DNA from: Symbiobacterium sp.
GTDB lineage: Bacteria > Bacillota > Sulfobacillia > UBA995 > UBA9673
Assembly: GCA_020725405.1 (NCBI GenBank)
Contig: DYFB01000039.1
Coordinates: 44,428-108,427, forward strand
Length of the DNA stretch: 64,000 nt
Reading direction: 5' to 3'
Position numbers and translations under genes: made by a program. This document shows positions 28,553 through 63,044 of the stretch, one piece after another. The notes under the pieces were generated by a model. That model ran no database searches. It was not told the DNA's origin and saw nothing but the letters and a program-made list of their open reading frames with translations. Position 1 is the stretch's first letter. Each line of letters starts with the position of its first letter.

Positions 28553-30256
28553 CTACCGGCGCAGGACCTTCCCGGCCCTGTCGCTGGAGAGCGCCCCCCG
28601 CTCGACGGCCATCACGCCGTTGACGATGACCCACTCGACGCCTACGGGAGCAAGGTACGGCTCCTTTCCCGTCGCGCGGTCGGAGATGGTCTCGGGGTCG
28701 AAGACGACCACATCGGCCCAGCCGCCGCGGGCCAGGAGGCCCCGGTCGGTCAGGCGGAGCTTGCGGGCCGGCAGGGCGGTGAGCTTGTGGACCACACCGG
28801 CGAGGTCGCCCAGACCGCGGCTGCGCCGGTAGTGGCCGAGGACGCGCGGAAAGGTCCCGAAGTGCCGGGGATGGACGGGGGTCCGCTCCCCGAGTTCGCG
28901 GTCAAGGGCGAAGGCGTCGGTTCCGACCATCGTCTCCGGGTGGGAGAGCACCGCGAAGACGTCATCCTCGCTCATGAGTGCGGCCAGGTGGAGCTTCAGG
29001 TCCTGCTCCAGAAGGAGGTCGGCCAACCGGTCGACGAGCCGCCGGCTCCACGCCTCGTCCGGCGGTCCCTTCTTGGTCCCCGGCGGTTCAATCCCCAGGA
29101 CCTCCTCGAAGGCCCGGCCCTCGAGGTCCGCGTCCCGGCCGGCGGTCACAATGAGGTAGTGGTGGGGCGACGCTAGGAACCCGGGAAGCTTCCCGTCGCG
29201 GGCGGCGGCTTTTCGGACCTCGTTCGCGGCCCGCTCGCGGAACTCGGGGTGACCAAGGCTGGCACGGACATCGTCGGGTGCCCCGCGCGGCGTCACCCCC
29301 GGAATCTCCCCGAGGAGCGAGAAGACCTGGGCGAAGGAGTAGGGGTAGACATCGCAGGTTATGTCGATGCCTTCCCGGCGGGCCTCCTCCATCAGGGCCA
29401 AGGTGCGCGCGACCTTTCCGAAGTTCTCGCGGCCGATGGCCTTGTGGTGCGAGACCTCAACGCGGACGCCGGCTTCCCGGCCGATGCGGACGGCCTCCTC
29501 GACCGCCTCGACCACCCCGCCGCTCTCGTCCTTCACGTGCGATGTGTAGAGGCCGTCGTACCGAGCCACCACCCGGGCGAGGGCGACGACCTCCGCGGTC
29601 GACGAACTCGCCCCCGGCATATAGGAGCGTCCGGTGGAGAGGCCGTGGGCCCCTTCTTCCAGGCAGGCTCGGGTCAGAGCCTCCATGGCTTCAATCTCGC
29701 CGGGGGTCGCCGGCCGGCGGTCGAGTCCCACGATATGGGCCCGGATGAGGCTCTGCCCGACGATAGGGTAGAGGTTCACCCCTATGCCGTGCTTGTCGAG
29801 GTAGTCGAGGTACTCTCCGAAGGAGTGCCAGGCCGGCCCCGAGCCGTCGTCAGCGCCGGCGGCGATCTGGGATGGGACCTCCCCGAGGAGGCCCTCGGAG
29901 AGCATCTTGAGGACGGTTTGGGCGACCTCGCCCTTCAGGGGGGCCGGCGACCAGCCGCAGCTCCCGGCGACCTCGGTGGTGATGCCCTGGAGGAGAGAGC
30001 TCCGGGCCCGGGGATGGGAGGGCAGGGAAAGGTCGGAGTGGGAGTGCATGTCGATGAACCCCGGGGCGACGGCGAGGCCCCGAGCGTCGATAACCGTGGC
30101 CGCCTCGGCGCCCTCAAAGGATCCCAGGCCGGCGATACGGCCTCCGGAGATGCCGAGGTCGGCCACGTAGGGGGGGTTACCGGTGCCGTCGACGATCAGC
30201 CCGCCGCGGATGAGCACGTCCAGCAAGTCCGCATCCTCCTCGGGTCGCGGCGCCAC
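28553..30256 (-). CDS. N-acyl-D-amino-acid deacylase (D-aminoacylase, amidohydrolase_3 family)
   Basis: 567 aa. N-terminal GGLIVDGTG...PGFIDMHSHSD metal-binding motif and C-terminal GDRATGKEPY region typical of D-aminoacylases. Confidence 0.85.
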   Translation of the reverse strand: MAPRPEEDADLLDVLIRGGLIVDGTGNPPYVADLGISGGRIAGLGSFEGAEAATVIDARGLAVAPGFIDMHSHSDLSLPSHPRARSSLLQGITTEVAGSCGWSPAPLKGEVAQTVLKMLSEGLLGEVPSQIAAGADDGSGPAWHSFGEYLDYLDKHGIGVNLYPIVGQSLIRAHIVGLDRRPATPGEIEAMEALTRACLEEGAHGLSTGRSYMPGASSSTAEVVALARVVARYDGLYTSHVKDESGGVVEAVEEAVRIGREAGVRVEVSHHKAIGRENFGKVARTLALMEEARREGIDITCDVYPYSFAQVFSLLGEIPGVTPRGAPDDVRASLGHPEFRERAANEVRKAAARDGKLPGFLASPHHYLIVTAGRDADLEGRAFEEVLGIEPPGTKKGPPDEAWSRRLVDRLADLLLEQDLKLHLAALMSEDDVFAVLSHPETMVGTDAFALDRELGERTPVHPRHFGTFPRVLGHYRRSRGLGDLAGVVHKLTALPARKLRLTDRGLLARGGWADVVVFDPETISDRATGKEPYLAPVGVEWVIVNGVMAVERGALSSDRAGKVLRR

Positions 30257-30337
30257 CGGAAGCCCGGGGCGCTGTCATCGTCCGGCGGTCTTCGCTCCCG
30301 GGTGTCGGAAGCCCTGCTGGTGCTCTTACTAAGCGTC

Positions 30338-30360
30338 GCCCGGCGAGGCCCTCGCCGGGC
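30338..30360. promoter_or_regulatory. 23-bp perfect palindrome gcccggcgagg-c-cctcgccgggc in the divergent promoter region
   Basis: Seen directly. Lies between the D-aminoacylase start (30256, minus) and the helicase start (30555, plus). Confidence 0.4.
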
Positions 30361-30554
30361 CGCCCTGTCGCCCTGGCCGTGAGCCCGCCGCGCCAATCCT
30401 GGCGCTCCCGCCCGAGGAGGCCCCGCTGTCTGAGCGGAAACCCACATCTGGGCTTCCATTCCACTTGCCAGGGAACTCTCCCGTTCGTAGCGAAAAGTGT
30501 CAGGAGTTGGCGCTTTGCCCCGGAGCAAGCCCTAATCCACTGGCGAGGGAGCCT

Positions 30555-33500
30555 ATGAGCGCGGTCCCGGCCATACCGGAAATCGACTTCTCGGCCGACC
30601 CCGAGGCCGTCCGCCTCGTGGCCGAGGCGCACCGCCTGAGCTATGGTCACCTGGCGAACCCCGGGTTCGCCGCCGAGGTGTCTCTCATCGACCCCCTGCC
30701 GCACCAGCGAATCGCGGTCTACGACCACATTCTGAACCAGCGGCCGCTTCGCTTCCTCCTGGCCGACGACGCCGGGGCCGGAAAGACTATCATGACCGGC
30801 CTCTACATCCGCGAGATGCTCAGCCGGCGTCTCCTGCGCCGCGTACTGGTAGTCCCGCCCGCCGGACTGGTCAGCAACTGGCGGCGCGAGCTGGCCACGC
30901 TCTTCGGCCTCCGCGCGCGGGTGATCACCGGGGCGGACGCCTCCCGCGCGAGCGGGTCCGGTGACTCGCCGAACCCCTTCCGCGGTCCGGGCTCCGACCT
31001 CGCCATCGTCAGCGTCGACACCCTGGCGGGGCAGAAGGTCTTCTCCCGTCTGGCCGAGCCGGGCGTGGAACCCTACGACCTCGTCGTCTTCGACGAGGCC
31101 CACAAGCTGGCCGCCCGCCAGGACCCGGACGGCCGCATCGTGAAGACCGACCGCTACAGCCTCGCGGAGGCGCTGGCGGGCGTGAAGACTAGCGAGCCCC
31201 GGTTCCGTCTCGATTGGCACGCCCGCAATCTCCTGCTCCTCACGGCCACGCCGCACATGGGCAAGGACTTCCCCTACTACTGCCTCTGGCGGCTCCTCGA
31301 GCCCGAGGCCCTGGCTACCTTCGAGGCCTTCTCGGCCTACCCGCCCGCCGAGCGACGCCATCATTTCCTCCGCCGGACCAAGGAGGAGATGGTGGACTTC
31401 TCCGGACGCCCGCTCTACCCGCCGCGGCACTGTGATACCGTGAGCTACGAGCTCACCCAGGGCGGGGAGAGCGAGCAAGAGCTCTACGACGAGACCACCA
31501 AGTACATCAGCAGTTACTACAACCGGGCGCGCCTCCTCAATCGCACGGCCGTACGCCTGGCCATGAGCGTCTTCCAGCGCCGTCTGGCGAGTTCCACCTA
31601 CGCCCTGATGCGATCGTTCGAGCGCCGCCTGGAGAAGCTCGAAGCCATCATGGACGACCTCAGGTCCGGGCGCCTCACCGCCGACCAACTGCTCATCCGG
31701 CAGCGCCGCCTGGACAGCACCCGTGATCTCCTGGACGAGGCCACGGCGGACGAAGAAGGAGTCGAGCACGGCGAGGAGAGCAGCGAGGCCGCTGAGCGGA
31801 ACCTCCTCGGCGGCGTGGTCGCCGTGAACCTGGCCGAGCTCGAGGTGGAGAAAGCCAAAGTCGCCGAGCTCCTCGACCTCGCCCGCCGCGTAGCGGCCAA
31901 GGGCAGCGGGGCCAAGTTCGAACGCCTCCTGGAGGTCCTGGGCGACGCGCGTTTCGCCGAAGAGAAGTTCCTCATTTTCACAGAGCACCGCGACACGATG
32001 GACTTCATCGCCCGCCGGTTGGAGGCCCTCGGCTATACCGGCCAGGTGGCCCGGATCCACGGCGGTCTCGACGCCGCCGAGCGGGACCGCCAGATCGAGT
32101 TCTTCCGCGCCCCGGCCGGCGCCGGAGGAGCCCGCTTCATGGTCTGCACCGACGCGGCTGGTGAGGGTATTAACCTTCAGTTCTGCTGGCTCATGGTCAA
32201 CTACGACATCCCGTGGAACCCGGCTCGCCTGGAGCAGCGCATGGGCCGCATCCATCGCTACCTTCAGACCCGCGAGGTCCGCATCATCAACCTCGTTGCC
32301 GGGAACACCCGCGAGGGCCGGGTGCTGAAGACTCTGCTCGACAAGCTCCAGCTCATCCGCGAGCGGCTCGGCTCGGACAAGGTCTTCGACGTGGTGGGGC
32401 GGCTCTTCGAGGGCGTCTCGCTCCGAGAGTACATGGAGATGGCCGTCACCGAAGCGGGGGTTGAGGCTGCCGCCAGGTTCATCGAAGGCCGACTCACCCC
32501 CGAGCAGGTCGAGGCCCTCGAGGCCCGTGAGCGCCTCCTCTACGGCGACCGCGGGGACGTCAAACGAGAACTGCCGGCTCTCAAAGACCGGCTCGAGCAG
32601 GAAGGACTGCGGCGGCTCCTTCCGGGCTACGTCCGGCACTTCGTGCTCGGGGCCGCGCCGGTGCTCGACCTCGCCCTCGAGGGCCCGGTGGACGGCCGCT
32701 TCACCTTCCGGCCCCTCCGCCCAGGCGCTCTGGACCCCTTCCTGCCGGCCTCGGAGGCCTACCCTCCCGACTGGCAGACACTCTTCACCATCGAGCGCCC
32801 GGCACGGGAGGAGAAGGTCGTCTTCCTGCGCCCCGGCGAGCCGTTCTTCGAGAGTCTGCGCGAGGCTGTGGCGTCCAGGCTGGAGGGGTCAGCCCTCAGG
32901 GGTGGGGTCTTCACCGACCCCCACGCCACGGGTCCCTACCTCTTCCACCTGGCCCTGGTCAGCGTGGTGCGCCGCCGTGACCCCGCCGATCCGGGCTTCG
33001 CGGAAGAACTTCTCCTGGAGGAGAGAGTCGTCGGCGTGCGCCAGGACGAGAGCGGCAACATGGAGCTGTGCCCCATCGAGCACCTGCTCCTCCTGCGCGG
33101 GGCGCCAGGGGCCTTGCCGGTGGGCCGTCTTGCGGCGGCGCCGCTGGAGTACCGGGAACAGGCCCGCCGATTCGCGATGACCCGGGTGGCGGAGGTCCGG
33201 GCCGAGGACATCCGGGAGAGGCTCCGGCTGGAACTGGCCCGGCGCCGAGAGGCGGTCCGCCAGGGCTACGACTACCGGCTGGCCGAGCTCGGCGAGAGCC
33301 GGGTCAGGCTGCGCAAGGCGGCCTCGGAGGGAGACCGCAGGGCCGCCGGCGAGCTCGAGGCCGTCAAGCGAGAGCAGGAGCGGGTCACGGCCGAGGCGCA
33401 GGCGGCCTCCCGGCGGTTGGAGCGGGAACCCGACCTCGTGGCGCCGGGCGAGGTGCGCTTCCTCGCCCACGCGCTGGTCCTGCCCAGCGCCGACAGCGAG

Positions 33501-33911
33501 GACCAGGCTCATCACGACGCCCGGGTGGAGGCTCTGGCCATGGAGTACGCCCGCCGCTACGAGGAGGACCTCGGCGCCGTGGTGAAGGACGTCTCCACAG
33601 CGGACCGGGCCCGCGAGGCCGGCCTCGGCGACCGGCCCGGCTTCGACCTCCTCTCCCGGCGCCCCGATGGGCAGGAGCTGTGCATCGAGGTCAAGGGCCG
33701 GGCCCACGCCGGTGAGGTCGAGGTGACCCGGAACGAGTGGGCCCAGGCCTGTAACCTGGGTCCGCGGTACTGGCTCTACGTGGTCTACGACTGCGCCACC
33801 CGCCAGCCGAGGTTGCGCCGGATCCAGGACCCCTTCTCCCGGCTCCTGGCCAGGACCAAGGGGAGCGTGCTCATCAGCGAAGCGGAAATAGCCGAAGCGG
33901 CGGAGGGATGA
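30555..33911 (+). CDS. SNF2-family helicase (DEAH box) with a C-terminal DUF3883-like PD-(D/E)xK nuclease-like domain (BrxHII-like; 'HmaA'-like)
   Basis: Start at ATG 30555 (GAGGGAG RBS); the ORF track's TTG at 30465 is less likely. Helicase motifs: I DDAGAGKT, II VVFDEAHKL, VI QRMGRIHRYLQ. C-terminal segment ...DGQELCIEVKG...YWLYVVYDC carries a D..E.K signature. Confidence 0.9.
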   Translation: MSAVPAIPEIDFSADPEAVRLVAEAHRLSYGHLANPGFAAEVSLIDPLPHQRIAVYDHILNQRPLRFLLADDAGAGKTIMTGLYIREMLSRRLLRRVLVVPPAGLVSNWRRELATLFGLRARVITGADASRASGSGDSPNPFRGPGSDLAIVSVDTLAGQKVFSRLAEPGVEPYDLVVFDEAHKLAARQDPDGRIVKTDRYSLAEALAGVKTSEPRFRLDWHARNLLLLTATPHMGKDFPYYCLWRLLEPEALATFEAFSAYPPAERRHHFLRRTKEEMVDFSGRPLYPPRHCDTVSYELTQGGESEQELYDETTKYISSYYNRARLLNRTAVRLAMSVFQRRLASSTYALMRSFERRLEKLEAIMDDLRSGRLTADQLLIRQRRLDSTRDLLDEATADEEGVEHGEESSEAAERNLLGGVVAVNLAELEVEKAKVAELLDLARRVAAKGSGAKFERLLEVLGDARFAEEKFLIFTEHRDTMDFIARRLEALGYTGQVARIHGGLDAAERDRQIEFFRAPAGAGGARFMVCTDAAGEGINLQFCWLMVNYDIPWNPARLEQRMGRIHRYLQTREVRIINLVAGNTREGRVLKTLLDKLQLIRERLGSDKVFDVVGRLFEGVSLREYMEMAVTEAGVEAAARFIEGRLTPEQVEALEARERLLYGDRGDVKRELPALKDRLEQEGLRRLLPGYVRHFVLGAAPVLDLALEGPVDGRFTFRPLRPGALDPFLPASEAYPPDWQTLFTIERPAREEKVVFLRPGEPFFESLREAVASRLEGSALRGGVFTDPHATGPYLFHLALVSVVRRRDPADPGFAEELLLEERVVGVRQDESGNMELCPIEHLLLLRGAPGALPVGRLAAAPLEYREQARRFAMTRVAEVRAEDIRERLRLELARRREAVRQGYDYRLAELGESRVRLRKAASEGDRRAAGELEAVKREQERVTAEAQAASRRLEREPDLVAPGEVRFLAHALVLPSADSEDQAHHDARVEALAMEYARRYEEDLGAVVKDVSTADRAREAGLGDRPGFDLLSRRPDGQELCIEVKGRAHAGEVEVTRNEWAQACNLGPRYWLYVVYDCATRQPRLRRIQDPFSRLLARTKGSVLISEAEIAEAAEG

Positions 33912-33918
33912 ACTCGCG

Positions 33919-36900
33919 GTGGAACCCAGCGGACCGACCGGACGGCGCCTCATCGAGGCGACCTTTCCGCTGAGGCAGGCGTCACTCGACTCCGTGCACG
34001 AGAAGAACGTCCGGCACGGGCATATCTCCACCCTGCACATCTGGCCGGCCCGGCGACCCCTGGCCGCCTGCCGGGCCGCGCTCATCGCCACTCTCCTGCC
34101 GGACCCCGGGACTTCCGAAGAGCGCCGGCGGCTCGCGGAGAGAATCGGCGGGAGGGTTGTCGAGCGTCGCGAGATGAAGAAGGTCGGCTCCCGGGAGGTC
34201 GAGACGGTCCGGGAGGAGACCGAGGGAGGACTCCTCCACTGGGGGCGGGAGAACAGCCCCGACCTCGACTGGTTCCGGGAGGAGATCCGCAAGGCCTACG
34301 GCGGCAGGGCTCCGAAGGTGCTGGACCCCTTCGCCGGTGGAGGGTCCATACCCCTCGAGGCCATGCGCCTCGGCTGCGAGGCCATCGCGATGGACATCAA
34401 CCCGGTGGCGTGGTTCATCCTGAAGTGCACGCTGGACTACCCCCACCGGATGGCCGGTAAGACCCTGCCTCTGCCCAAGGCGGCCCTCGAGTCGGCCGAG
34501 TTCATGGAGGCCTTCCTGCGAGGGACGGGGAGGGTCAAGAAGAAGGCGGACCTTGAGCGGCAGCTCCAAGGGGTGCAGCTCGGCCTCTTCCCGCCTCCCG
34601 AGGCCGACCTCGCTTGGCACGTGCGGGCGTGGGGTCGCTGGGTCTTCCAGCGGGCCAAGGTGGACCTCGAACGCTTCTACCCGGTGGTCGACGGGAAGCC
34701 CACGGTGGCCTACCTGTGGGCGAGGACGGTCAAGTGCAAGAACTGCCGCGGGGAGGTGCCTCTCCTCAAGACCAGGTGGCTCTGCCGTAAGCCGGATAAG
34801 AAGGTGCTCCTCACCCTGCGCACGGAGCCGGGCAAGGCCGAGGCCGACTTCGGCGTCCGGGTTCTCCGGCCTGACGAGGTGGTGAACGACGCCGACACCA
34901 AGGGTACCATGTCCAGGGCCGGGGCGACCTGCCCGCACTGCGGCGTCATCACGATGATGGAGGACCTCCGCCAGGAGGGTCGCGCCGGTCGCCTAGGGCA
35001 GCGGTTGGTGGCCGTGGTGGTCGAGGGGGCCCGTGGAAAGGAGTATCGACCTCCCACCGGTGAGGAGATACGGAGGGCATCGGAGGCTGGGGGCGCGGTC
35101 GCTTCGGCGTTCGACGGAGTACCCTTCGGGACCCCCGACGAACCGCTTCCGGCCAAGGAGGCGCTCGGCATCCGGGTCCCACTCTACGGCTTGGATACCT
35201 GGGGGAAGCTGTTCAACCCTCGCCAGCTGCTCGCCCTGGGAAGCTTCGTCCGCCATACTCGTGCGGCACGGGAGGCGATGCATGCTCACGAGTACTCCCC
35301 AGAGTGGGTCGAAGCGGTGGGGACCCTTCTAACCCTCGTAGTCGATAAACTCGCGGACTATAACGCGAGCCTAACGACATGGAACACGCCTGGGGAAAAG
35401 ATGAGGAACGTCTTTGTCCGGTTCGCCCTGCCCATAACGTGGGATTATGCTGAGCTTAACCCCCTTTCACAGTCTACCGGGAACTACCTAGCCTGCCTAG
35501 AGTGGGTGGCCCGGTCAACGGAGCATACCTCTCTAGCTGCGCTGAGGTGTCCCTTCCCGCAAAGCGTTCTCGGCTCGGCTATCCGCCTACCTGCCGAGCA
35601 GGGGACGGTGGACCTCGTGGTGACCGACCCGCCGTACTACGACGCCATACCCTACTCGGATACGATGGACTTCTTCTACGTCTGGCTACGCCGGAGCACG
35701 CACGGGCTGGCTCCGGACGTCGATGCGGCCTTTTCCGAAGAGCTCGGCCCGAAGTGGGACGGGCCTCGAGAGGAAGGAGAGCTTATCGACGACGATAGTC
35801 GCTTCGGTGGTGACCCCCAAAGGTCCCGGGCCGCCTACGAAGCCGGCATGCTTAAGGCGTTCCAGGAGTGCTACCGAGTCCTCCGCCCCGAGGGGCGGCT
35901 CGTGGTCGTCTTCGCCCAGAAGAACCCTGCGGCGTGGGAAGCCCTCGTTTCGGCCATGCTTCGAGCGGGCTTCGTGGTCACCGCAAGTTGGCCGGTGCAA
36001 ACCGAGAGGGAGACCCGCACTAGAGCACTGTCCGGAGCTGCCCTCTCCTCGTCAGTCTGGCTTGTCTGCCGCAAGCGCCCGCCGAGCGCCCGACCCGGGT
36101 GGGATAACCAGGTCCTCGAAGAGACGCGCGCACGCCTCTGGGGCGTGCGGGCTGACGAGGTCGGCGAGTGGGTGTATCGCCCCACCCTCCGCGAGTTCTG
36201 GGATGCCGGGATTCGCGGCCCCGATTTCGTCTGGGCGGCCACCGGTCCGGCGCTCGAGGCCTACAGCCGCTACCCGGCGGTGAAGAAGGCCGACCGGCCC
36301 GATGAACTCCTGACCGTGAGCGAGTTCCTCCGCCACGTGCGTCGCCTGGTGGTGGATTTCGTCGTCGGCCGCGTGCTCACCCCGGAAGGAGAGCCGTCGG
36401 CCGCGCCCCCGCTAGACGACGTAACGACCTACTACCTCCTTCACCGGCAGGCTTTCCAGTTTTCCGAGACCCCCATCGGCGCGGTCATCCTCTATTCCGT
36501 GTCGTGCGGGCTCTCGGACCGCGACCTCGTGGAGGAGTACGACCTCCTTTCCCGCAGCGGCGGGAGCACCGCGCCCGCCGACCTGGAAGAGGACGGTTCG
36601 GATTCCGGGGAGGACGCCCAAGAAGAGGGAGAGGAAGAGGAAACCGCCGGCGCTTCCGGCGGCACCTCAAAGGTCCGGCTCAGGCCCTGGCACCAACGCC
36701 GGGGCAAGCGCATGGGTTACGAGAACGGCGGCCGGCCGGTGCCGCTGATAGACCAGGTCCATCGGCTGATGCATCTCTGGAAGACCGGCGACGTGCGCGC
36801 GGTCAACCACTACATCGGCGAGCGGGGTCTGCAATCAAGCGGCGTGTTCGCTAGGCTCCTCCAGGCCCTCATCGAGCTCTCGCCCGTCGGAGACGAGGAG

Positions 36901-37023
36901 CGGACGCTCCTGGAGAGCATCAGCAACCACCTGGCCGGGCTCCGGCTGGCTCGCCGGCCCGACCAGCTCTTTGACAGCCAGCAGGCTCCTGAAGAGCCCT
37001 TTCGGGGAGGCGTAAAGTCATGA
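33919..37023 (+). CDS. DUF1156-type DNA methyltransferase (N6-adenine/N4-cytosine class; PglXI-like; 'HmaB'-like)
   Basis: GTG start 8 nt after the helicase stop. N-terminal DUF1156 signature (IEATFPL...HISTLHIWPARRP). Motif I VLDPFAGGGSIPLEA. Cys4 Zn-ribbon insertion (CKNCRG...CPHCG). Motif IV VVTDPPYYD about 440 aa after motif I. Confidence 0.9.
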   Translation: MEPSGPTGRRLIEATFPLRQASLDSVHEKNVRHGHISTLHIWPARRPLAACRAALIATLLPDPGTSEERRRLAERIGGRVVERREMKKVGSREVETVREETEGGLLHWGRENSPDLDWFREEIRKAYGGRAPKVLDPFAGGGSIPLEAMRLGCEAIAMDINPVAWFILKCTLDYPHRMAGKTLPLPKAALESAEFMEAFLRGTGRVKKKADLERQLQGVQLGLFPPPEADLAWHVRAWGRWVFQRAKVDLERFYPVVDGKPTVAYLWARTVKCKNCRGEVPLLKTRWLCRKPDKKVLLTLRTEPGKAEADFGVRVLRPDEVVNDADTKGTMSRAGATCPHCGVITMMEDLRQEGRAGRLGQRLVAVVVEGARGKEYRPPTGEEIRRASEAGGAVASAFDGVPFGTPDEPLPAKEALGIRVPLYGLDTWGKLFNPRQLLALGSFVRHTRAAREAMHAHEYSPEWVEAVGTLLTLVVDKLADYNASLTTWNTPGEKMRNVFVRFALPITWDYAELNPLSQSTGNYLACLEWVARSTEHTSLAALRCPFPQSVLGSAIRLPAEQGTVDLVVTDPPYYDAIPYSDTMDFFYVWLRRSTHGLAPDVDAAFSEELGPKWDGPREEGELIDDDSRFGGDPQRSRAAYEAGMLKAFQECYRVLRPEGRLVVVFAQKNPAAWEALVSAMLRAGFVVTASWPVQTERETRTRALSGAALSSSVWLVCRKRPPSARPGWDNQVLEETRARLWGVRADEVGEWVYRPTLREFWDAGIRGPDFVWAATGPALEAYSRYPAVKKADRPDELLTVSEFLRHVRRLVVDFVVGRVLTPEGEPSAAPPLDDVTTYYLLHRQAFQFSETPIGAVILYSVSCGLSDRDLVEEYDLLSRSGGSTAPADLEEDGSDSGEDAQEEGEEEETAGASGGTSKVRLRPWHQRRGKRMGYENGGRPVPLIDQVHRLMHLWKTGDVRAVNHYIGERGLQSSGVFARLLQALIELSPVGDEERTLLESISNHLAGLRLARRPDQLFDSQQAPEEPFRGGVKS

Positions 37024-40000
37024 TTTCAACCCCGACCTTCACTCCGTGGCACAAGGTGGTGCGGCTCCGCGACGACCTCCGGTCCGGGGAACTTCCCCTG
37101 GCCATCTTCGCCGCCGATCTCTACGCGGTCCGGATGGCGACGGCCCCACCGGTCTACCGGGACCCCCGGGAGTTCTTCTCGCTGACCTACCCGGCCCACA
37201 ACCTCCGCAGGCTGGCCAAGGAGGTCATGGACCGGCTCGCCGGCCGGAGCGAGCGAGCCGTCCGCCAACTCGAGCTCACCTACGGAGGCGGCAAGACCCA
37301 CGCCCTCATCACCCTCTACCACCTCGTGAACGACCCAGAGACGCTTCCGGAGGACCTTCCGGCCGTACGCGAGTTCATCGTGCACGCTGGGCAGCGCCCG
37401 CCCAAGGCCCGCGTGGCCGTGCTGGCCTTCGACAAGCTGGACGTCGAGAAGGGCATGGAGGTGCCCGGCCCCGACGGCCGGAAGCGGTGGCTCCGCCATC
37501 CCTGGAGCGTCCTCGCCTACCAGCTCGCCGGCTCGGAGGGTCTGCGCCTCCTCCACGCCGCGGACCGGGACGAAGAGCGCGAGAGCCCCCCGGCGGAGAA
37601 CCTCCTCACCGAGCTCCTCGCCATCCCCGCCCGCGCAGACCTGGCCACTCTCATCCTCATCGACGAGGTCCTGATGTACGCCCGCGAGAAGGTGGCCCTG
37701 GACCCCACCTGGAGGGCGCGGCTCGTGGACTTCTGCCAGTACCTCACCCAGGCCACCACGGCCGTTCCGCGCTGCGCCATCGTCGCTTCACTCCTGGCCA
37801 CCGACCCGCGCAAGTACGACTCCCTGGGCCGCGAGCTGGCGAAGGACCTCTCCGACATCTTCCGCCGGGAGAAGGAGGAGAGCATCCAGCCCGTCCTCAA
37901 GGAGGACGTGGCCGAGATCCTCCGCCGTCGTTTCTTCACGCCGGAGTCGACCCGCGACCACGAGCTCTTCCGGCCGCACGTCATAGCGGCTCTACAGGGC
38001 ATCCAGGCCCTGGACGAGGCCACCGCTCGTCAGGGCCCTGAGGCCGAGGAGAGGTACCTGGCCAGCTACCCCTTCCATCCAGACCTCACCGACGTCTTCT
38101 ACACCAAGTGGACCAACCTCGAGGGCTTCCAGCGCACCCGGGGTATCCTCCGCACCTTCGCCCTCGCCCTGCGCGAGGCGGAACGCTGGGACACCTCGCC
38201 CCTGGTGGCCGCCAACGTCTTCCTCAGCGAGCCCGGCCGGACCGATCTCTCCCCGGCGGCCCGGGAGCTCACCGGGGTAGCCGCCACCGAGGAGTACGAG
38301 GGTAAGAGGCAGGAGTGGACCGCCATCCTTGAAGGGGAACTGGCCAAGGCACGAGCCATACAGGAAGAGTGCCCGGCCCTTCGTCACCGCGAGGTGGAGC
38401 AGGCCGTCTTCGCGACCTTCCTCCACTCCCAGCCGGCGACCCAGAAGGCCCTCACCCGGGAACTCATGGTTCTGGTCGGAGCCACCTGCCCGGACCGGAT
38501 CGAGCTCGGAAAGGCCCTCCGGCGATGGGCGGAGGTCTCCTGGTTCCTCGACGAGGCCGGCCTCCAAGACGTGGAGAACGGTCCACAGGGAGAGCGATTC
38601 CTGCCCCGAACGTGGCGTCTGGGCTCCCGGCCTAACCTGACCCAGATGCACCACGACGCCTGCGGCCGCGTATCGGCGGAGTTGGTCGAGGCCCGGCTGC
38701 TTGAGGACATCGCCAGGACCAAGGACCTTACGGCCGGTGCCGGTAAGGCCGGGGCCAGGGTTCACACCCTGCCGGAGGCGCCCAACGACATCTCCGACGA
38801 CTGGGAGTTCCACTATGCGGTGCTCGGGCCGAAGGCCGCGTCCGAGCCGGGTAAGCCCAGTGCCGAGGCCGTCCGCTTTCTCACCGAGACCTCCGGCCCG
38901 CAAAAGCCCCGGGTCAACCAGAACGCCGTCGTCCTGGCCGTTCCGGCCCGGGAGGGGCTCGAGATCGCTCGGAGCCGCGTCCGTGACTACCTTGGGTGGG
39001 AGGAAGTGGCCCAGCAGCTCAAGGAGCAGAAGGTCCACGACCCCCTGCGCACGGCGGCCCTGAACGCCCACCTCGATGCAAGCCGCAAGGCCATCCCGGC
39101 CGCCGTCCAGCAGGCCTACTGCATCGTCGTCACCATCGGACGAGACGGCGGACCCGAGGCCTTCAGAGTCACCGTCGGCGACCGGCCGCTGTTCGAGGTT
39201 ATCAAGGCCGACGAGCGCTCGCGCATCCGCGAGTCGGCTGTGGCGGCCGGCGCCCTCCTACCCGGCGGCCCGTACGACCTGTGGGAGGAAGGCGAGACCT
39301 CGCGCCGGATGCGGGACCTCGTCGGGTCCTTCGCCCAGTTTCCACGCCTGCCGAAGATGCTCAACTCCCAGGCCATCCTGGACACCCTCCTGGCTGGCTG
39401 TCAGAGCGGCCTCTTCGTGATGCGGCTGACCCGGCCCGACCGCTCGGTCCGCACCTTCTGGCGGGAGAGGCCGGACGATGTGGCCGTGAAGGATCCGAGC
39501 CTCGAGGTGGTTCTGCCCCAGGGGGCCGCTCTAACGGAGCTGGCCCCGTCTCTTCTCGAGCCCGGCGCTCTGCCGGGACTGTGGCCGCAAGAGGGGAGGT
39601 TCAGGGTGGGCGACCTTTACGCCTACTTCGCCGGCGGCCACTCCGTGGCCGTTTCGCGCGGGACGTACGAGGAGACCGTCGTCATCCCCGCGGCCCCGCG
39701 GGAGGTCGTGGACGTGGCCGTGCGCGCCGCGGTAAGGGAGGCCAAGGTGTGGCTCCTCGCCGCCGGCGGGGCGGCCAGCGTCTGCGAGGAGGACATCCCG
39801 CCGGGGCTGCTCACCGAGAACGCCATCCTCCAGGGGCCGCCGGAGCCTCTGTCGCCCACGTCCATCCTGCCGGACGCCCTGCCGGCGGCCTGGCCGGGGC
39901 CACCGCCCGGCTCGGTCGAACGCCTTACCAGCGCCCTGGCCATCCTAGACGCCGCCTCGGCCAGAGCCGGGCTGACCCTGCCTTGGGCGGTGGTCCGCCG

Positions 40001-40346
40001 GGCCATCGACGGGGCCCTTCGGACCCGGCTCCTCGAGCTGGCCGACGGCTCGGGCCCTTGGCCGTGCGAGCTAACGGCGGCGAAGGACGTCAGGCTGAGG
40101 GAGAGGAAGGCTGGCGGCGGCCCCGTGCCACCTGAATGGCCCAAAGTGGCCCAGGCTGACCTCGAACCGAACGAGCTCCAGGAGCTGGCGGACCAGACCG
40201 CCACCCTCCTCAAGGTCGCGGGCCGCGAGAAGGTCAAGTACCACGTCCGCATCGAGCTCTCCGAGACCGATGCGGAGACCCTCGAACAAGTCGCGAACGT
40301 GCTCCTTGCCGTGAGCCCGCGCTTGCGGCTGAAAGAGAGTGGTTAG
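37020..40346 (+). CDS. DUF499-like P-loop ATPase (BrxC/PglY-like; 'HmaC'-like)
   Basis: ATGA overlap with the methylase stop. N-terminal TPWHKVVRLRDDL...FAADLYAV...FFSLTYPAHNLRRL...LELTYGGGKTHALITLYHL (Walker-A-like GGGKTH). 1108 aa, with size and architecture like BrxC. Confidence 0.85.
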   Translation: MISTPTFTPWHKVVRLRDDLRSGELPLAIFAADLYAVRMATAPPVYRDPREFFSLTYPAHNLRRLAKEVMDRLAGRSERAVRQLELTYGGGKTHALITLYHLVNDPETLPEDLPAVREFIVHAGQRPPKARVAVLAFDKLDVEKGMEVPGPDGRKRWLRHPWSVLAYQLAGSEGLRLLHAADRDEERESPPAENLLTELLAIPARADLATLILIDEVLMYAREKVALDPTWRARLVDFCQYLTQATTAVPRCAIVASLLATDPRKYDSLGRELAKDLSDIFRREKEESIQPVLKEDVAEILRRRFFTPESTRDHELFRPHVIAALQGIQALDEATARQGPEAEERYLASYPFHPDLTDVFYTKWTNLEGFQRTRGILRTFALALREAERWDTSPLVAANVFLSEPGRTDLSPAARELTGVAATEEYEGKRQEWTAILEGELAKARAIQEECPALRHREVEQAVFATFLHSQPATQKALTRELMVLVGATCPDRIELGKALRRWAEVSWFLDEAGLQDVENGPQGERFLPRTWRLGSRPNLTQMHHDACGRVSAELVEARLLEDIARTKDLTAGAGKAGARVHTLPEAPNDISDDWEFHYAVLGPKAASEPGKPSAEAVRFLTETSGPQKPRVNQNAVVLAVPAREGLEIARSRVRDYLGWEEVAQQLKEQKVHDPLRTAALNAHLDASRKAIPAAVQQAYCIVVTIGRDGGPEAFRVTVGDRPLFEVIKADERSRIRESAVAAGALLPGGPYDLWEEGETSRRMRDLVGSFAQFPRLPKMLNSQAILDTLLAGCQSGLFVMRLTRPDRSVRTFWRERPDDVAVKDPSLEVVLPQGAALTELAPSLLEPGALPGLWPQEGRFRVGDLYAYFAGGHSVAVSRGTYEETVVIPAAPREVVDVAVRAAVREAKVWLLAAGGAASVCEEDIPPGLLTENAILQGPPEPLSPTSILPDALPAAWPGPPPGSVERLTSALAILDAASARAGLTLPWAVVRRAIDGALRTRLLELADGSGPWPCELTAAKDVRLRERKAGGGPVPPEWPKVAQADLEPNELQELADQTATLLKVAGREKVKYHVRIELSETDAETLEQVANVLLAVSPRLRLKESG

Positions 40347-40572
40347 GAGAGCGTCCGACGCCCGCACGGCTCCGAGCAGCCTTACCGGGGCCCAGGACCT
40401 CGTCCCCCTCGGTCACCGCCCAGGTGCGGCGCCGGGGGTCGAGAAAGACCTGGGCTCCCTCCAGTTTGCGCCAGACGCCCGACGGCTGGAACCAGTAGAT
40501 GCGGTTGCGCCGGTCATCCTCGAGGACCGTCACCAGCTCGCCGCGGAGCTCCGGACCGGATGGTCCGGCCAT
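40234..40572 (-). CDS. Possible small ORF (112 aa) downstream of bshC, antisense-overlapping the 3' end of the DUF499 gene
   Basis: ATG 40572 preceded by GGGAGGTGG at -6. The first ~60 aa (MAGPSGPELRGELVTVLEDDRRNRIYWFQPSGVWRKLEGAQVFLDPRRRTW...) look protein-like; the rest is low complexity. No family recognised. Confidence 0.25.
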   Translation of the reverse strand: MAGPSGPELRGELVTVLEDDRRNRIYWFQPSGVWRKLEGAQVFLDPRRRTWAVTEGDEVLGPGKAARSRAGVGRSPNHSLSAASAGSRQGARSRLVRGSPHRSRRARCGRGT

Positions 40573-40658: not shown

Positions 40659-42344
40659 CTACAGCCAGACCAGGCGGTGCCCCGGGTCGACGGCCGCCCC
40701 CGGGGGGACTAGCGGCAGTCCCGCCAGGGCGTCGGCGAGGCCGGGACCGTACTTGACAAGATAGGGGAAGATGTTGAACACCCGCTCCTGGTAGTCGCCC
40801 CGCGGCCGGAGGGAGGCACCCACGACGTCGAAGCGGCCAAGGGTCTCCCGGCTCTTCCGGCGGTGCTCCTGCCAGACCTTCTTTCTGAGCCACTCCGCCT
40901 CGGCCAGAACCTTCCCGCGGTTCTTTGCGGCAAGCTCCTTGAGCGAGGTTTCCACGCCGGCCACCACGCCGGTGAGGGTCTCGTACTCGTCCGCGATCAA
41001 CCGGGCCAGGCGGTCGAAAGCCTTGTCGATGCCCACAGGGTCGGCCCGGTCGAGCCAGCTCGCCCGCGCCGCCTGCAGGGCCTCCGGGTCGAGAGCGGAC
41101 GCGGGATCGAGACCGAGCCGGTCGAGGTGCCGCGCGACCGACGGCTCGATGATGGTGACCCCGGGGCGCGGGTAGACAATCGGCATCCGGCGGCCGAGCC
41201 GGTGGTAGACCTCGCGGTAAAGGCCGAAATAGCTCGTCTCGCCCGGGCCTCCGACGTAGGCCAGGACCGGAAGGAGCATGTCCTGGCCGACCGGCCGCAG
41301 GACCACGTTGGGACTCAGCCGCTCCGGGCTCGCGGCGACCATCTCCAGAAGGTCCCGCCGGGTCAGGGTCTCCGCCCGGTCCTGGCCGTGTCCCGGACCG
41401 AGCTCGAAGACGTCGGCCGACAGCCGGCGGAGCGGGACCCGCTCCATCCCCCGATAGACGTAGAGGTTGGCCGACTGCGGGTCCTTGTCCACCTGGGGCT
41501 CGAAACCGAGGTCCCGCACCCGCCTCTGGCCGAGGGCGAAGGCCTCGGCGAGGGCCTCGTTCTCCTCGACCATCCGGCGGAAGGCCGGCCTCTGGAGAGC
41601 CCGGAGACCCGGGTCGAGAGGGTTGGCCACGAGGAGGCCGCGGTCCCCGAAGAGAGCAAAGAGGAGCCGTCCGAACCACTCGCCGAGGTCGGTCGACGCG
41701 GCCGCGGTCTCGCGGAGAAGACCGACGACCCCGGCGGTGAACTCCGTGGACCACAGCGACGTCTCGACCTCCGCCAGGAAGGCCTCGACGGCCGGGCCGG
41801 TCGGGAGGCTGCCGACCGACGTCCGGGGAGCGAACCCGCCGCCGGGGTCGTAGGCGTGGCGGACGATGTCGCCTCGAGGAGTAAGAACGTGCACCTGGGA
41901 TATCTCGGCAAGGTCGTGGTCTTCCGCGCCGACCCAGAAGACCGGGACGACCTTGGTCCCGGCCGGGAGGAGTTGCCGGACCTCCCCGGCGAGCTCGATG
42001 ACGACGGCGGCCTTCCAGAAGGTGTAGAGGGGCCCGGTCAGGACCCCGGGCTGCTGGCCGCCGATGACGACGACGGACCCGGGGTCGGCCAGGTCCTCCG
42101 CCGCGGCCAGGACCGGGGCCGGGGCCCCGAGCGACCGGGCGTAGGCCGCCAGAACGGCCGCGAGGGCCTCGCGGTCGCCCTCAAACCGCTGTCTCAGCTC
42201 CTCGAGGCGGTGGCCGTACGAAGCCGGGTCGTGGGGTGAATGGTCGTAGAGATGAGCGACAGTGTCAAAGCAGTGCAGGTAGGCCGCCCACAGCGGGTAG
42301 CGGGGGTCGGACGTCGGCGTCGTCGATACGCGGTATCCGGTCAT
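40659..42344 (-). CDS. bshC: Bacillithiol biosynthesis cysteine-adding enzyme BshC (YllA family)
   Basis: 561 aa, with a GGQQ motif and overall YllA/BshC-like length and composition. Recalled family resemblance, not a computed match. Confidence 0.7.
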   Translation of the reverse strand: MTGYRVSTTPTSDPRYPLWAAYLHCFDTVAHLYDHSPHDPASYGHRLEELRQRFEGDREALAAVLAAYARSLGAPAPVLAAAEDLADPGSVVVIGGQQPGVLTGPLYTFWKAAVVIELAGEVRQLLPAGTKVVPVFWVGAEDHDLAEISQVHVLTPRGDIVRHAYDPGGGFAPRTSVGSLPTGPAVEAFLAEVETSLWSTEFTAGVVGLLRETAAASTDLGEWFGRLLFALFGDRGLLVANPLDPGLRALQRPAFRRMVEENEALAEAFALGQRRVRDLGFEPQVDKDPQSANLYVYRGMERVPLRRLSADVFELGPGHGQDRAETLTRRDLLEMVAASPERLSPNVVLRPVGQDMLLPVLAYVGGPGETSYFGLYREVYHRLGRRMPIVYPRPGVTIIEPSVARHLDRLGLDPASALDPEALQAARASWLDRADPVGIDKAFDRLARLIADEYETLTGVVAGVETSLKELAAKNRGKVLAEAEWLRKKVWQEHRRKSRETLGRFDVVGASLRPRGDYQERVFNIFPYLVKYGPGLADALAGLPLVPPGAAVDPGHRLVWL

Positions 42345-60161: not shown

Positions 60162-61502
60162 CTAGAGCCGCGGCGGCGGTCGGAAGTGCTGGTCCAGAGC
60201 GTCTTCGAGGTCGGGGCGCCCGATCTCCTGCAGCTCGTAGCTCACCCGGACCGCCGGGCGGCGGATGTCCACGACCCGCCGGAGGTCGATGGGGGTGGCG
60301 ATGACGACGAGCTCGGCCGGGGTCCTGTCGACGGTAGCCGCGAGGTCTTCCATCTGCTGTTTCCCGTAGCCCATGGCCGGGAGGAGTGGACCGACCTCGT
60401 AGCGGGCGAAGGTATCCCGGATGCTGCCGAGCGCGTAGGGACGGGGGTCGACCAGCTCAGCCGCCCCGAACCTCCTCGCCGCGATGACGCCCGCTCCGTA
60501 GGTCATCCCCCCGTGGGTGAGGGTGGGGCCGTCCTCGATGACGAGGACTCGTTTGCCCCGCACGGCGGCCGGGTCCTCGACGAAGATGGGCGAAGCCGCC
60601 TCGACGACGGTCGCCCGGGGGTTCAGGCGGCGGGCGCTCTCCCGGACCGCGTCGACCCCGTCAGGGCCGGCGGTGTCAACCTTGTTGATGACCACGATGT
60701 CCGCCATCCGGAGATTGGCCTCCCCCGGATGGTAGGCCGTCTCGTGGCCCGGCCGGTGGGGGTCGACCAGGACGATGTGGACGTCGGGCCGGTAGAAGGG
60801 AAGGTCGTTGTTCCCGCCGTCCCAGAGGATGACGTCGGCCTCGCCGGCGGCCTCCTCCAGAACGGCTCCGTAGTCAACCCCGGCGTAGACGACGACGCCC
60901 CGTCGGATGTGGGGCTCGTACTCCTCCCGTTCCTCGATGGTCGTTCGATGCGCGTCAAGGTCCTCATATGAAGAGAAGCGCTGGACGGCCTGGGCGGCGA
61001 GGTCGCCGTAGGGCATCGGGTGGCGCACGACCACGAGCCGGTAGCCCCGGGCCTGAAGGAGGGAGACGACCCGCCGCGTCGTCTGGCTCTTGCCCACCCC
61101 GGTCCGCACGGCGGTCACGGCCACCACCGGACGGGGGGCCTGGAGCATGGTGGTGCCCGGGCCCATGAGCCAGAAGTCCAGCCCGAGGGCCAGGCACTGC
61201 GAGGCCCGGTGCATCACGTAGGTGTGGGAGACGTCACTGTAGGCGAAGACCGCCCGCTCGGCGCCCCTCTCCTGAACGACCCGCTCGAGCTCCTCCTCGG
61301 GGAAGATGGGAATTCCCCGGGGGTAGCGGGGTCCGGCGAGGCCGGACGGGTAGACCCGGCCGGCGATGTCGGGAATCTGGGTCGCCGTGAAGGCGACGAC
61401 GTCGTATTCCGGGTTGTCCCGGAAGAAGACGTTGAAGTTATGGAAGTCACGGCCGGCGGCGCCCATGATGACGACCCGCGTCGGACCGTGTCTCACCACC
61501 AT
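60162..61502 (-). CDS. P-loop protein of the family annotated as cyclic 2,3-diphosphoglycerate synthetase (cDPGS-like), paralogue 2
   Basis: 446 aa. N-terminal IMGAAGRDFHNFN, P-loop AVTAVRTGVGKSQTTR, and DGGNND / GDGPTLTHGGM motifs. About 60% identical to the upstream paralogue. Confidence 0.6.
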   Translation of the reverse strand: MVVRHGPTRVVIMGAAGRDFHNFNVFFRDNPEYDVVAFTATQIPDIAGRVYPSGLAGPRYPRGIPIFPEEELERVVQERGAERAVFAYSDVSHTYVMHRASQCLALGLDFWLMGPGTTMLQAPRPVVAVTAVRTGVGKSQTTRRVVSLLQARGYRLVVVRHPMPYGDLAAQAVQRFSSYEDLDAHRTTIEEREEYEPHIRRGVVVYAGVDYGAVLEEAAGEADVILWDGGNNDLPFYRPDVHIVLVDPHRPGHETAYHPGEANLRMADIVVINKVDTAGPDGVDAVRESARRLNPRATVVEAASPIFVEDPAAVRGKRVLVIEDGPTLTHGGMTYGAGVIAARRFGAAELVDPRPYALGSIRDTFARYEVGPLLPAMGYGKQQMEDLAATVDRTPAELVVIATPIDLRRVVDIRRPAVRVSYELQEIGRPDLEDALDQHFRPPPRL

Positions 61503-61617
61503 AGCCCCGCCTCCGGGGCTAGTATTGGCGGCCGCTTCCTACCCGTATGCAGGACAGCCGGGCGAGGGGGTAGGGGCGGCCCCGGACCGGGGCCCGTCAG
61601 CCCCGGACCGGGGCCCG

Positions 61618-62937
61618 TCAGCCCAGGACCGGAGCCAGCGCCTCGGCCAGGGTCGGCCGCCCCCTCTCCTGGAGGTCGTAGCGGACACGGACGGCCGGCT
61701 TCGAGAGCTTGACCACACGCCGGAGGTCGATGGGGGTGCCGATGACGACCACCTCGGCCGGGGTGCGTTCGATGGTCTCCTCGAGCTCGCGGACCTGCTC
61801 GGCCCCGTAACCCATGGCCGGGAGCACCGGCCCCATGTGCGGGTATTTGGCGAACGTGGTCGCGATGGACCCAACGGCGTAGGGCCGGGGGTCGACGGCC
61901 ACCGCGCCGGCCCGGCAGGCGGCGATGGTGCCGGCCCCGTAGGCCATCTCGCCGTGGGTCAGGGTCGGTCCGTCCTCGACGACAAGTACGGTCCGTCCCC
62001 GGAGAGCCTCCGCGTCCCCGGATACGGTGAGGGGTGAGTCGGCTTCGATGACCACGGCCCGCGGGTTAACCGCCGCCACGTTCCGACGGACCGCCTCGAC
62101 GTCCTCGGGGCGGGCCGTATCCACCTTGTTGATGACCACGATGTCGGCCAGGCGGAGGTTGGTCTCCCCGGGGTGGTAGAGAAGCTCGTGCCCTGGACGG
62201 TGCGGATCGGCCACGGTTATGTAGACGTCGGCCCGGTAGAAGGCGAAGTCGTTGTTGCCCCCGTCCCAGAGGATGACGTCGGCCTCCTTCTCGGCCCGGC
62301 GGAGGATGGCCTCGTAGTCGACCCCTGCGAAGACGATGCTGCCCCGGTCGAGGTGCGGCTCGTACTCCTCGCGCTCCTCGATGGTGCAGTCGTGACGGTC
62401 GAGATCCTCATAGACGGCGAAACGCTGGACGGCCTGTTTCACGAGGTCTCCGTACGGCATCGGATGCCGGACGACGGCCACCTGCTTTCCGGCGTCCTTG
62501 AGTATCTCGCTCACCCGGCGGGTGGTCTGGCTCTTCCCCGCGCCCGTGCGAACAGCGCAGACCGCGACAACGGGCTTGGTCGACCGCAGCATCGTGGCCT
62601 CCGGCCCCTGGAGAACGAAGTCGGCTCCGGCCGCCAGGGCCGTCGAGGCCTTGTGCATGACGTAGTCGTGGGGCACGTCGCTGTAAGCGAAGACCACCTG
62701 GTCCACGCCAAGCTCCTTCACCAGCCTGGGCAGCTCGTCCTCGGGATGGATGGGTATACCGCGCGGGTAGCCCTCCCCGGCAAGCTCGGCCGGGTAGACC
62801 CGGCCCTCGATGTTCGGAATCTGGGTGGCGGTGAAGGCCACCACCTCGTAGGCGGGGTTACCCCGGTAGAAGGTGTTGAAGTTGTGGAAGTCCCGCCCGG
62901 CCGCGCCCATGATGAGGACGCGCGTCCTCCTGGTCAC
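61618..62937 (-). CDS. cDPGS-like P-loop protein, paralogue 1
   Basis: 439 aa with the same motif set (IMGAAGRDFHNFN, AVCAVRTGAGKSQTTR). Tandem duplicate of 60162..61502. Confidence 0.6.
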   Translation of the reverse strand: MTRRTRVLIMGAAGRDFHNFNTFYRGNPAYEVVAFTATQIPNIEGRVYPAELAGEGYPRGIPIHPEDELPRLVKELGVDQVVFAYSDVPHDYVMHKASTALAAGADFVLQGPEATMLRSTKPVVAVCAVRTGAGKSQTTRRVSEILKDAGKQVAVVRHPMPYGDLVKQAVQRFAVYEDLDRHDCTIEEREEYEPHLDRGSIVFAGVDYEAILRRAEKEADVILWDGGNNDFAFYRADVYITVADPHRPGHELLYHPGETNLRLADIVVINKVDTARPEDVEAVRRNVAAVNPRAVVIEADSPLTVSGDAEALRGRTVLVVEDGPTLTHGEMAYGAGTIAACRAGAVAVDPRPYAVGSIATTFAKYPHMGPVLPAMGYGAEQVRELEETIERTPAEVVVIGTPIDLRRVVKLSKPAVRVRYDLQERGRPTLAEALAPVLG

Positions 62938-63044
62938 TTGAGCTCCTCCCCCTTGCCTGGCTTATGTCGTCTGGGTGCTTTCCCGGGTCCGCACCGCTTC
63001 GCGGTTTCGCCCGTCCCGGTCGGGCCCGCCCTCACATGACCACC

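Follow-up and report, generated by a model that had tools for sequence, protein, structure and literature searches.

The DNA analysed here, a 64 kb stretch of contig DYFB01000039.1 (the window), comes from an uncultured high-GC Bacillota bacterium and carries three large consecutive genes, hmaA, hmaB and hmaC, which almost certainly form a complete, compact and intact Hma system, also classified as a Type-1 DUF499-centred BREX-related (BR) system. The locus is genuine but unremarkable, a further copy of a known, widespread and partly characterised defence system. Its identity was assigned on the basis of the best PADLOC models of the three products (HmaA, HmaB and HmaC), Pfam matches above threshold, the RapA-like HmaA, the Cdc6/ORC- and BrxC-like HmaC and the invariant catalytic residues. 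A first-pass annotation of the region had presented the trio as a candidate defence system. The trio is not novel as a system type: thousands of genomes are known to carry it, its effector has been assayed and the mechanism of a sister system is understood. Hma was named and catalogued by PADLOC in 2021 with 1,638 loci in 26 phyla (Payne et al. 2021, PMC8565338), HmaA was shown to be active in 2024 (PMC11232893), the trio was reclassified as the Type-1 BR system of 2,446 taxa in 2026 (Rakesh & Krishnan, NAR 2026, PMC12839542), and the Type-2 BR system MANTIS has been dissected. New here are the insertion status of the trio and the allelic forms of a cassette in hmaB; only the cassette polymorphism extends what the consulted literature describes.

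Gene organization and protein domains

All three genes lie on the plus strand in a minus-strand housekeeping context. hmaA (30555 to 33911, ATG start) encodes 1118 aa and has GAGGGAG 5' of its start, hmaB (33919 to 37023, GTG start) encodes 1034 aa and has GGAGGG upstream, and hmaC (37020 to 40346, ATG start) encodes 1108 aa. The TGA of hmaA ends at 33911 and is followed, after 7 nt, by the GTG of hmaB at +8. The hmaB and hmaC genes overlap in an ATGA at 37020-37023. From these junctions, the three genes are predicted to be translationally coupled. Their GC content at third codon positions (GC3) was 0.82-0.88, the same as that of the neighbouring genes. Pfam matches were scored against gathering thresholds, PADLOC models were used for defence systems and NCBIfam models were used with their cut-offs. 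The first-pass annotation was accurate on the gene sizes, their strand context, both junctions and the motifs quoted for all three proteins. The families that it had listed for checking (DUF499, DUF1156, DUF3883, SNF2 and Helicase_C) were all recovered above thresholds, and its Hma assignment agreed with the best PADLOC models, far ahead of the next-ranking unrelated ones.

HmaA gave its best PADLOC match with the HmaA model (3e-152, residues 11-1079). Helicase_C (81 bits), NOV_C/PF13020 (66 bits, cut-off 22) and SNF2-rel (32 bits) were above the Pfam gathering thresholds, as was ResIII, and the translation contains DDAGAGKT, DEAH, QRMGRIHR and GFDLL...EVK. The Swi2/Snf2 ATPase core is encoded at 30690 to 32429 of the plus strand (about aa 46-625). 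In an alignment of 15 sequences its K77/T78 (motif I), D180-E181-H183 (motif II), T232 (motif III) and Q561/R562/R565/R568 (motif VI) are invariant. The C-terminal NOV_C/DUF3883 domain of PD-(D/E)xK nuclease type (33525 to 33818, plus strand, aa 991-1088) possesses D1031, E1045, K1047 and E1061, which are invariant in the 15 homologues and correspond to D1084, E1104, K1106 and E1121 of Halomonas HmaA, the residues needed there for nicking and defence (PMC11232893). RapA was the best PDB match both by sequence and by fold (fold E = 5.8e-20), and the alignment runs along the length of the protein. The model of HmaA had an overall predicted local distance difference test score (pLDDT) of 68.6 and was confident from residue 690 on, with about 80-90 in the nuclease region. 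By analogy, HmaA is the likely effector of the system, a RapA-like Swi2/Snf2 helicase fused to a C-terminal nuclease.

More than 7,900 homologues of HmaA, about 60% identical, were found across phyla. Most of the ~60%-identical homologues are ~80 aa longer and have an N-terminal XRE-type helix-turn-helix (PF01381/PF13560), which is missing from the HmaA of the window and its closest relatives. In the window protein, the helicase core with its PLPHQ motif is preceded by only 47 residues (30555-30695), modelled as low-confidence helices.

HmaB matched the PADLOC HmaB model best (3.3e-113) over nearly its full length, and its Pfam matches above threshold were DUF1156 (63 bits, aa 16-68) and N6_N4_Mtase (33 bits, aa 564-685). 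Motif I (DPFAGGGS, aa 136-143), a Cys4 finger formed by CKNC and CPHC at aa 273 and 338 (C273/C276/C338/C341) and motif IV (DPPY, aa 570-573) are all conserved. The order of the motifs is that of the alpha class, with motif I followed by an internal recognition insert containing the Cys4 finger, then DPPY as motif IV and a long C-terminal region. HmaB is thus classed, on its motifs, as a predicted N6-adenine DNA methyltransferase with an internal target-recognition insert. Sequence searches of the PDB with HmaB and HmaC gave no useful match. A strongly acidic low-complexity linker (EEDGSDSGEDAQEEGEEEE; aa ~905-935, 36630-36725) was observed before the last ~100 residues of HmaB. The linker differs in length from homologue to homologue and recalls the C-terminal domain of MANTIS MtsC, described as flexible and negatively charged.

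For HmaC, the best PADLOC model was HmaC (1.7e-76, residues 7-796) and the DUF499 match was above the Pfam gathering threshold (56 bits). Across 30 sequences, Walker A (GGGKTH, G89-H94) and Walker B (D215-E216) do not vary. The AlphaFold2 model of the protein (pLDDT 77.9) had as its top Foldseek matches archaeal Cdc6/ORC (1fnn, 2.3e-4) and the BREX ATPase BrxC (9zdx_C, probability 0.99). As modelled, HmaC is an AAA+ ATPase of the ORC/Cdc6 clade related to BrxC. Its HmaC model score was 256 bits against 62 bits for the Gao_RL-type DUF499 model, the scores serving as a proxy for membership of the Type-1 clade in place of a tree. Residue 7 of HmaC aligns ~160 residues into a Thermus 'Swt1 HEPN' DUF499 protein, and therefore HmaC has no N-terminal HEPN domain. 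The C-terminal 300 aa fall outside the PADLOC match and are the least conserved part of the protein, modelled as an alpha/beta region.

Insertion site and allelic forms of hmaB

To place the locus, BshC was scanned against genome contigs. The scan gave two distant relatives only, L001 (Clostridiales bacterium UBA9673) and L002, and no conspecific contig with an empty site, so that the event is dated and polarized by these two outgroups. Both are colinear with the window at 58-74% amino-acid identity and show the gene order HD/OB, CLP1_P, bshC, small gene and amidohydrolase, which in the longer contig of L001 continues into acrB. At their Hma-free site, bshC and the amidohydrolase are only some 440 bp apart. 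Hma occupies the same site in three conspecific contigs, namely the window, L003 (JGI 3300045950) and L008 (GCA_020725165.1). The hma trio is an insertion of roughly 10 kb and exactly three genes between the bshC-side small gene and the amidohydrolase. As L001 and L002 have no Hma at this site, the locus is accessory and not core, which answers the synteny check proposed in the first-pass annotation. The same annotation had considered an old insertion. This is plausible from the GC3 of the genes, which equals that of the host, and it is unproven.

The right junction was located at 40347 to 40393, and nucleotide homology to L001 resumes at 40394, 47 nt past the hmaC stop. A small minus-strand open reading frame (ORF; 40572 to 40234) without a Pfam family lies between bshC and the insertion. 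Its first 60 residues, up to 'EGDEVL', are 67% identical to the 71-aa L001 homologue (L001 ~4060-4266). Past 'EGDEVL' it runs 113 nt into the antisense strand of hmaC, which shows that the insertion replaced its native 3' end, that is, the C-terminus and stop. The left junction lies within the upstream leader of 298 nt (30257 to 30554, plus strand), between the amidohydrolase start (30256, minus strand) and the hmaA ATG, and this leader presumably holds the hma promoter as well as the junction. No direct or inverted repeats of at least 8 nt are common to the two junction regions, and no tRNA-like target or integrase was found at the junctions. No credible small ORF was found in the leader, and a terminator scan around the operon gave matches at or below shuffled expectation. 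The intergenic region contains a perfect 11-bp inverted repeat at 30338-30360 (GCCCGGCGAGG / CCTCGCCGGGC, 1-nt loop). This hairpin overlaps 30339-30371, a 33-nt stretch with weak similarity to the L001 intergenic region and the only such stretch in the leader. It may belong to the host genes, as a conserved element for regulation or termination.

The hmaB gene contains a hypervariable central cassette at 34835 to 36074 of the plus strand (aa ~306-718), which covers the distal recognition insert and the motif-IV region. It was recognized by comparing the window with L003 and L008, which are about 99.5% identical to it outside the tract. Against L003 the tract spans 35230-36074 with 193 differences (22.9% divergence, 0.46% elsewhere), and against L008 it spans 34835-36074 with 336 differences (27.1%, 0.53% elsewhere). 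Differences elsewhere are few, with 15 in hmaA and 10 in hmaC, each over 3.3 kb (~99.6% identical). All three hmaB alleles differ from each other, and they have a common right breakpoint (~36074) and different left breakpoints (34835 and 35230). Between alleles, aa 451-565 of HmaB are 61-64% identical and aa 1-300 and 701-1034 about 99%, and DPPY is kept in all of them. Synonymous divergence (dS) is 0.8-2.0 inside the cassette and 0.004-0.02 in the segments invariant in all three comparisons, with 0.05 in aa 301-450 between the window and L003. The ratio of nonsynonymous to synonymous divergence (dN/dS) is 0.06-0.19. High dS inside the tract against low dS outside, together with this dN/dS, implies that the tract was replaced by recombination with distant alleles and was not diversified in place. 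The pattern indicates cassette exchange in the specificity region of hmaB, and the cassette is presumed, by analogy, to be the specificity determinant. No donor of the window cassette was found among the 120 closest HmaB proteins, where the best match had 70% identity. In L008, hmaA appears split into 297 + 823 aa. A frameshift was ruled out, as a run of 10 N marks a scaffold gap at L008 3791-3800. We tentatively suggest that one uncultured species may re-target its Type-1 BR/Hma system by homologous exchange of a 0.8-1.2 kb hmaB cassette, while HmaA and HmaC are kept constant.

Thousands of Hma homologues of about 60% identity occur in Bacillota, Chloroflexota, Acidobacteriota, Deltaproteobacteria and archaea. 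L005 has a trio of identical gene order, whose A, B and C proteins share 68%, 66% and 69% identity with those of the window, and this trio lies in a prophage-like or mobile region with HicB, PIN and M78 genes. From such comparisons the trio appears to move and evolve as a unit. The first-pass annotation had expected homologous trios near defence genes, and they were indeed found beside GmrSD, HicB/PIN and IS110. DUF499 relatives on plasmids were all below 30% identity and none was found in phages, so that no direct vector was identified. Some other relatives differ in their organization. In L007 (Moorella glycerini, a cultured organism; PVXL01000029.1, 1901-15075), a 60%-identical trio has embedded DUF5343 and Hypoth_Ymh genes between hmaA and hmaB, while a GmrSD_N gene follows immediately downstream and an IS110 transposase gene precedes the trio. 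The locus illustrates the 'embedding' known from the literature. A 73%-identical relative (L004, GCA_041890195.1, 9286-14530) has hmaB called in two pieces (276 + 638 aa) and a truncated hmaC (704 aa), and this fragmented copy could be decaying or the result of assembly errors. The Thermus thermophilus HB8 plasmid pVV8 (L009, 3900-16487) carries a distant Hma-like system with a divergently oriented helicase, embedded Fic, HicAB and two helix-turn-helix genes and a HEPN-fused DUF499 protein ('Swt1 family HEPN') ~29% identical to the HmaC of the window.

The left flank of the locus is an Amidohydro_3 gene (28553-30256, minus strand) with AcrB further upstream, and the right flank is BshC (40659-42344, minus strand), beyond which lie a CLP1_P protein and an HD/OB nuclease. 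The remaining window is made of minus-strand housekeeping genes, including alr, glmS, glmM, ybbR, cdaA, CoA-transferases, acyl-CoA dehydrogenase, thiolase and OTCase. No integrase, transposase or second defence system was found in the 64 kb window, and the housekeeping context without integrase noted in the first-pass annotation was borne out. Two adjacent paralogous genes of ~450 aa at 60162-62961 (minus strand) gave weak cobW/GTPase-domain matches only. They adjoin an extracytoplasmic function sigma factor and a ClpP-like SDH protease.

Proposed mechanism and alternative explanations

A methylase-programmed mechanism similar to restriction-modification (RM) is considered moderately probable for the three-gene locus. 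HmaC, as an ORC/Cdc6-like AAA+ ATPase, would load HmaB onto short asymmetric sites, where HmaB would N6-methylate one adenine per site as a self mark on host DNA. On unmodified incoming DNA, the HmaB-HmaC complex would recruit or license HmaA, which would translocate by its RapA-like Swi2/Snf2 motor and nick or cut the DNA via its C-terminal PD-(D/E)xK domain. The steps are transferred by analogy from systems elsewhere, namely from the defence and nickase activities of an HmaA and from the ATPase-loaded hemimethylation and methylase-directed restriction of a Type-2 system. The first-pass annotation had likewise pictured a self-contained methylation-based system with the helicase-nuclease as effector. 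This agrees with the published view of Type-1 BR systems (PMC12839542) and with the Type-2 mechanism (bioRxiv 10.64898/2026.09.23.753747), and we infer the same for this locus. Its statement that there was no experimental demonstration for Hma is outdated. In E. coli, hmaA from Halomonas meridiana SCSIO 43005 is by itself sufficient for about 100-fold protection against T4 (Liu et al. 2024, PMC11232893), this defence needs motif VI and four NOV_C residues, and the isolated NOV_C domain is a Mn2+-dependent nickase (PMC11232893). The Type-2 BR system Gao_RL, renamed MANTIS, was dissected in 2026 in Pseudomonas aeruginosa, where the methylase is loaded by the DUF499 ATPase and hemimethylates asymmetric sites of 6 bp, and no component is dispensable for restriction (bioRxiv 10.64898/2026.09.23.753747). 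In the same work, swapping aa 445-527 of MtsC (~80 residues between motif I and DPPY) switched the specificity of both methylation and restriction.

Several points weigh against the RM-like mechanism. A methylation motif, ATPase-dependent loading and trio-dependent restriction are shown in the literature for no Type-1/Hma system. Type-1 systems do not have the MtsB (DUF3780) co-activator which MANTIS needs for methylation. No Tudor-like beta-barrel is apparent, in the low-pLDDT model, in the 47 residues N-terminal to the HmaA helicase core. A promoter scan, weak for an organism of 69% GC, found no sigma-70 consensus in the leader or around the operon. The remaining points come from the Halomonas study (PMC11232893) and also speak for a different explanation, in which HmaA is a stand-alone, methylation-independent and abortive-infection-like nickase that senses phage DNA structure or a replication intermediate, with HmaB and HmaC being accessory, regulatory or a separate travelling module. 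There, HmaA acted alone and was not toxic without HmaB, its defence collapsed at a multiplicity of infection of 10, and T4 from an HmaB-overexpressing host did not escape it. Moreover, about 15-20% of hmaA genes have no hmaB or hmaC, and defence genes are often embedded between hma genes. T4 DNA is, however, glucosyl-hydroxymethylated and HmaB was assayed without HmaC, so that the Halomonas tests do not address methylation-based discrimination. A stand-alone HmaA also fits poorly with the predicted translational coupling in the window, the equal rates at which hmaA, hmaB and hmaC co-diverge, the retention of the trio in about 1,500-2,400 genomes and the need for all components in the restriction by MANTIS, its sister system. 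Exchange of the hmaB cassette with a constant hmaA is hard to explain unless the sequence specificity of HmaB is functionally important for defence, which favours the RM-like mechanism and leaves the stand-alone nickase rather unlikely.

Other explanations bear on whether the locus works at all, and in which role. An intact system that is silent in its host, an unexpressed passenger, would fit the promoter and terminator scans, which found nothing credible around the operon. The consensus scan has little power at this GC content, three conspecific genomes have kept the ORFs intact and show purifying selection on the flanks, and hmaB shows ongoing allelic turnover; silence is considered improbable. 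Still less credible is a degenerate or reduced BREX type 3 or DISARM class 1 system which has lost PglZ/BrxA/BrxF or DrmA/B/C and is non-functional or a methylase remnant. The helicase core of HmaA does match the BrxHI/BrxHII (5.4e-95, 1.7e-74) and DrmD (4.6e-93) models and HmaC is BrxC-like, but the best models are Hma-specific and near full length, and PglXI matches HmaB over only 52 residues. Exactly three genes lie within the insertion boundaries, an arrangement that is seen again in unrelated surroundings; no active site is disrupted, and dN/dS stays under 1. A housekeeping or regulatory role, with a RapA-like RNA-polymerase recycling ATPase and an epigenetic regulatory methylase, would agree with RapA as the closest solved relative of HmaA and with the location among housekeeping genes without mobile-element genes. 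It is highly improbable in view of the absence of the locus from the two syntenic relatives, the conserved nuclease active site of HmaA, the cassette exchange in hmaB, the defence genes and IS110 beside homologues and the published anti-phage activity of HmaA (PMC11232893).

If each hmaB allele had its own motif and HmaA restriction followed it, Type-1 systems would be true methylase-programmed restriction systems, needing no MtsB-like co-activator and, it seems, no Tudor reader. The three alleles would then be a natural series for mapping the recognition code. The window locus is a clean minimal example of the system, with three coupled genes, no embedded passengers, no HEPN fusion and defined insertion boundaries. 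With three natural hmaB specificity alleles that share an otherwise identical background, it is a convenient candidate for testing whether HmaC-loaded HmaB programmes restriction by HmaA.

Relation to known systems

DISARM class 1 was rejected, as the DrmD model NF038317 scored 321 bits against a cut-off of 610 and covered the helicase core only, and DrmA, DrmB and DrmC were not found. With BREX type 3 the locus has in common a homologous ATPase, an alpha-class methylase with an internal recognition insert and a RapA-like Swi2/Snf2 helicase. It differs in the methylase, which has DUF1156, in the active-type nuclease of the helicase and in the lack of PglZ, BrxA and BrxF, none of which was found in the locus or the rest of the 64 kb window; the absence of PglZ, BrxA and BrxL noted in the first-pass annotation was confirmed. 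PglZ is thought to be the effector of BREX type 3. The same annotation had taken a DUF3883 helicase and a DUF1156 methylase as defining BREX type 3. This was incorrect, as the DUF1156 N-domain and the added active helicase nuclease set Type-1 BR/Hma apart from PglXI and BrxHII of BREX type 3 (PMC12839542). The predicted mechanism resembles Type III and Type ISP RM in that a methylase directs a helicase-nuclease, asymmetric sites become hemimethylated and ATP drives communication along the DNA. The window system differs from these in its Swi2/Snf2/RapA-like motor and its additional AAA+ loader ATPase, and no hidden Markov model common to the window proteins and Type III/ISP was detected beyond generic methylase and helicase domains.

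The Halomonas Hma system is composed of the same three families, and its HmaA likewise combines SNF2-rel, Helicase_C and NOV_C with the four nuclease residues kept. The window locus is compact, whereas about 63-66% of Hma loci, including that of Halomonas, carry embedded systems such as Septu. In a preprint with 1,485 curated Hma systems, 62.7% had embedded genes and they were typically not near other defence systems (bioRxiv 10.1101/2024.01.29.577857). The window system further differs from other Hma in the missing XRE domain of HmaA and in its host, an uncultured high-GC Bacillota, being known from sequence alone. As described for Type-1 BR systems, it consists of an ATPase, a DUF1156 methylase whose internal recognition insert has a Cys4 finger following strand 2, and a Swi2/Snf2 helicase with a C-terminal active-type PD-(D/E)xK nuclease, and it has no DUF3780, HKD, PglZ or iSTAND. 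About half of Type-1 systems have a HEPN fusion on DUF499 and about 44% of taxa are without it (PMC12839542); HmaC of the window belongs to the HEPN-less subset. The Tudor domain described for the Type-1 helicase is not evident here, and where a hypervariable winged helix-turn-helix and RNA-recognition-motif C-terminus is described for Type-1 DUF499, the model of HmaC shows an alpha/beta region. A Type-3 BR assignment was rejected, as there are only three genes within the insertion, no stand-alone PglZ/iSTAND and an intact nuclease in the helicase.

The locus also differs from the Type-2 system MANTIS in its components. The insertion contains no fourth gene such as DUF3780/MtsB, which MANTIS needs (DUF3870 in the preprint, DUF3780 in PMC12839542), and it is therefore outside Type-2. 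The nuclease of the MANTIS effector is an N-terminal HKD/PLD domain, while that of HmaA is the C-terminal PD-(D/E)xK domain; the PLD Pfam domain gave no match in HmaA and the PLD_Helicase model covers the helicase C-lobe only (aa 466-600). The NCBIfam Gao_RL models covered the window proteins in part only and were far under their cut-offs (174 against 1000, 87 against 1200 and 139 against 1100). Both systems nevertheless have a DUF499 AAA+ ATPase, an alpha-class N6-adenine methylase with its recognition domain between FAGGG and DPPY, and a helicase-nuclease effector. In MANTIS the recognition domain varies between strains whose effectors are ~99% identical, and the same pattern was observed in the species of the window.

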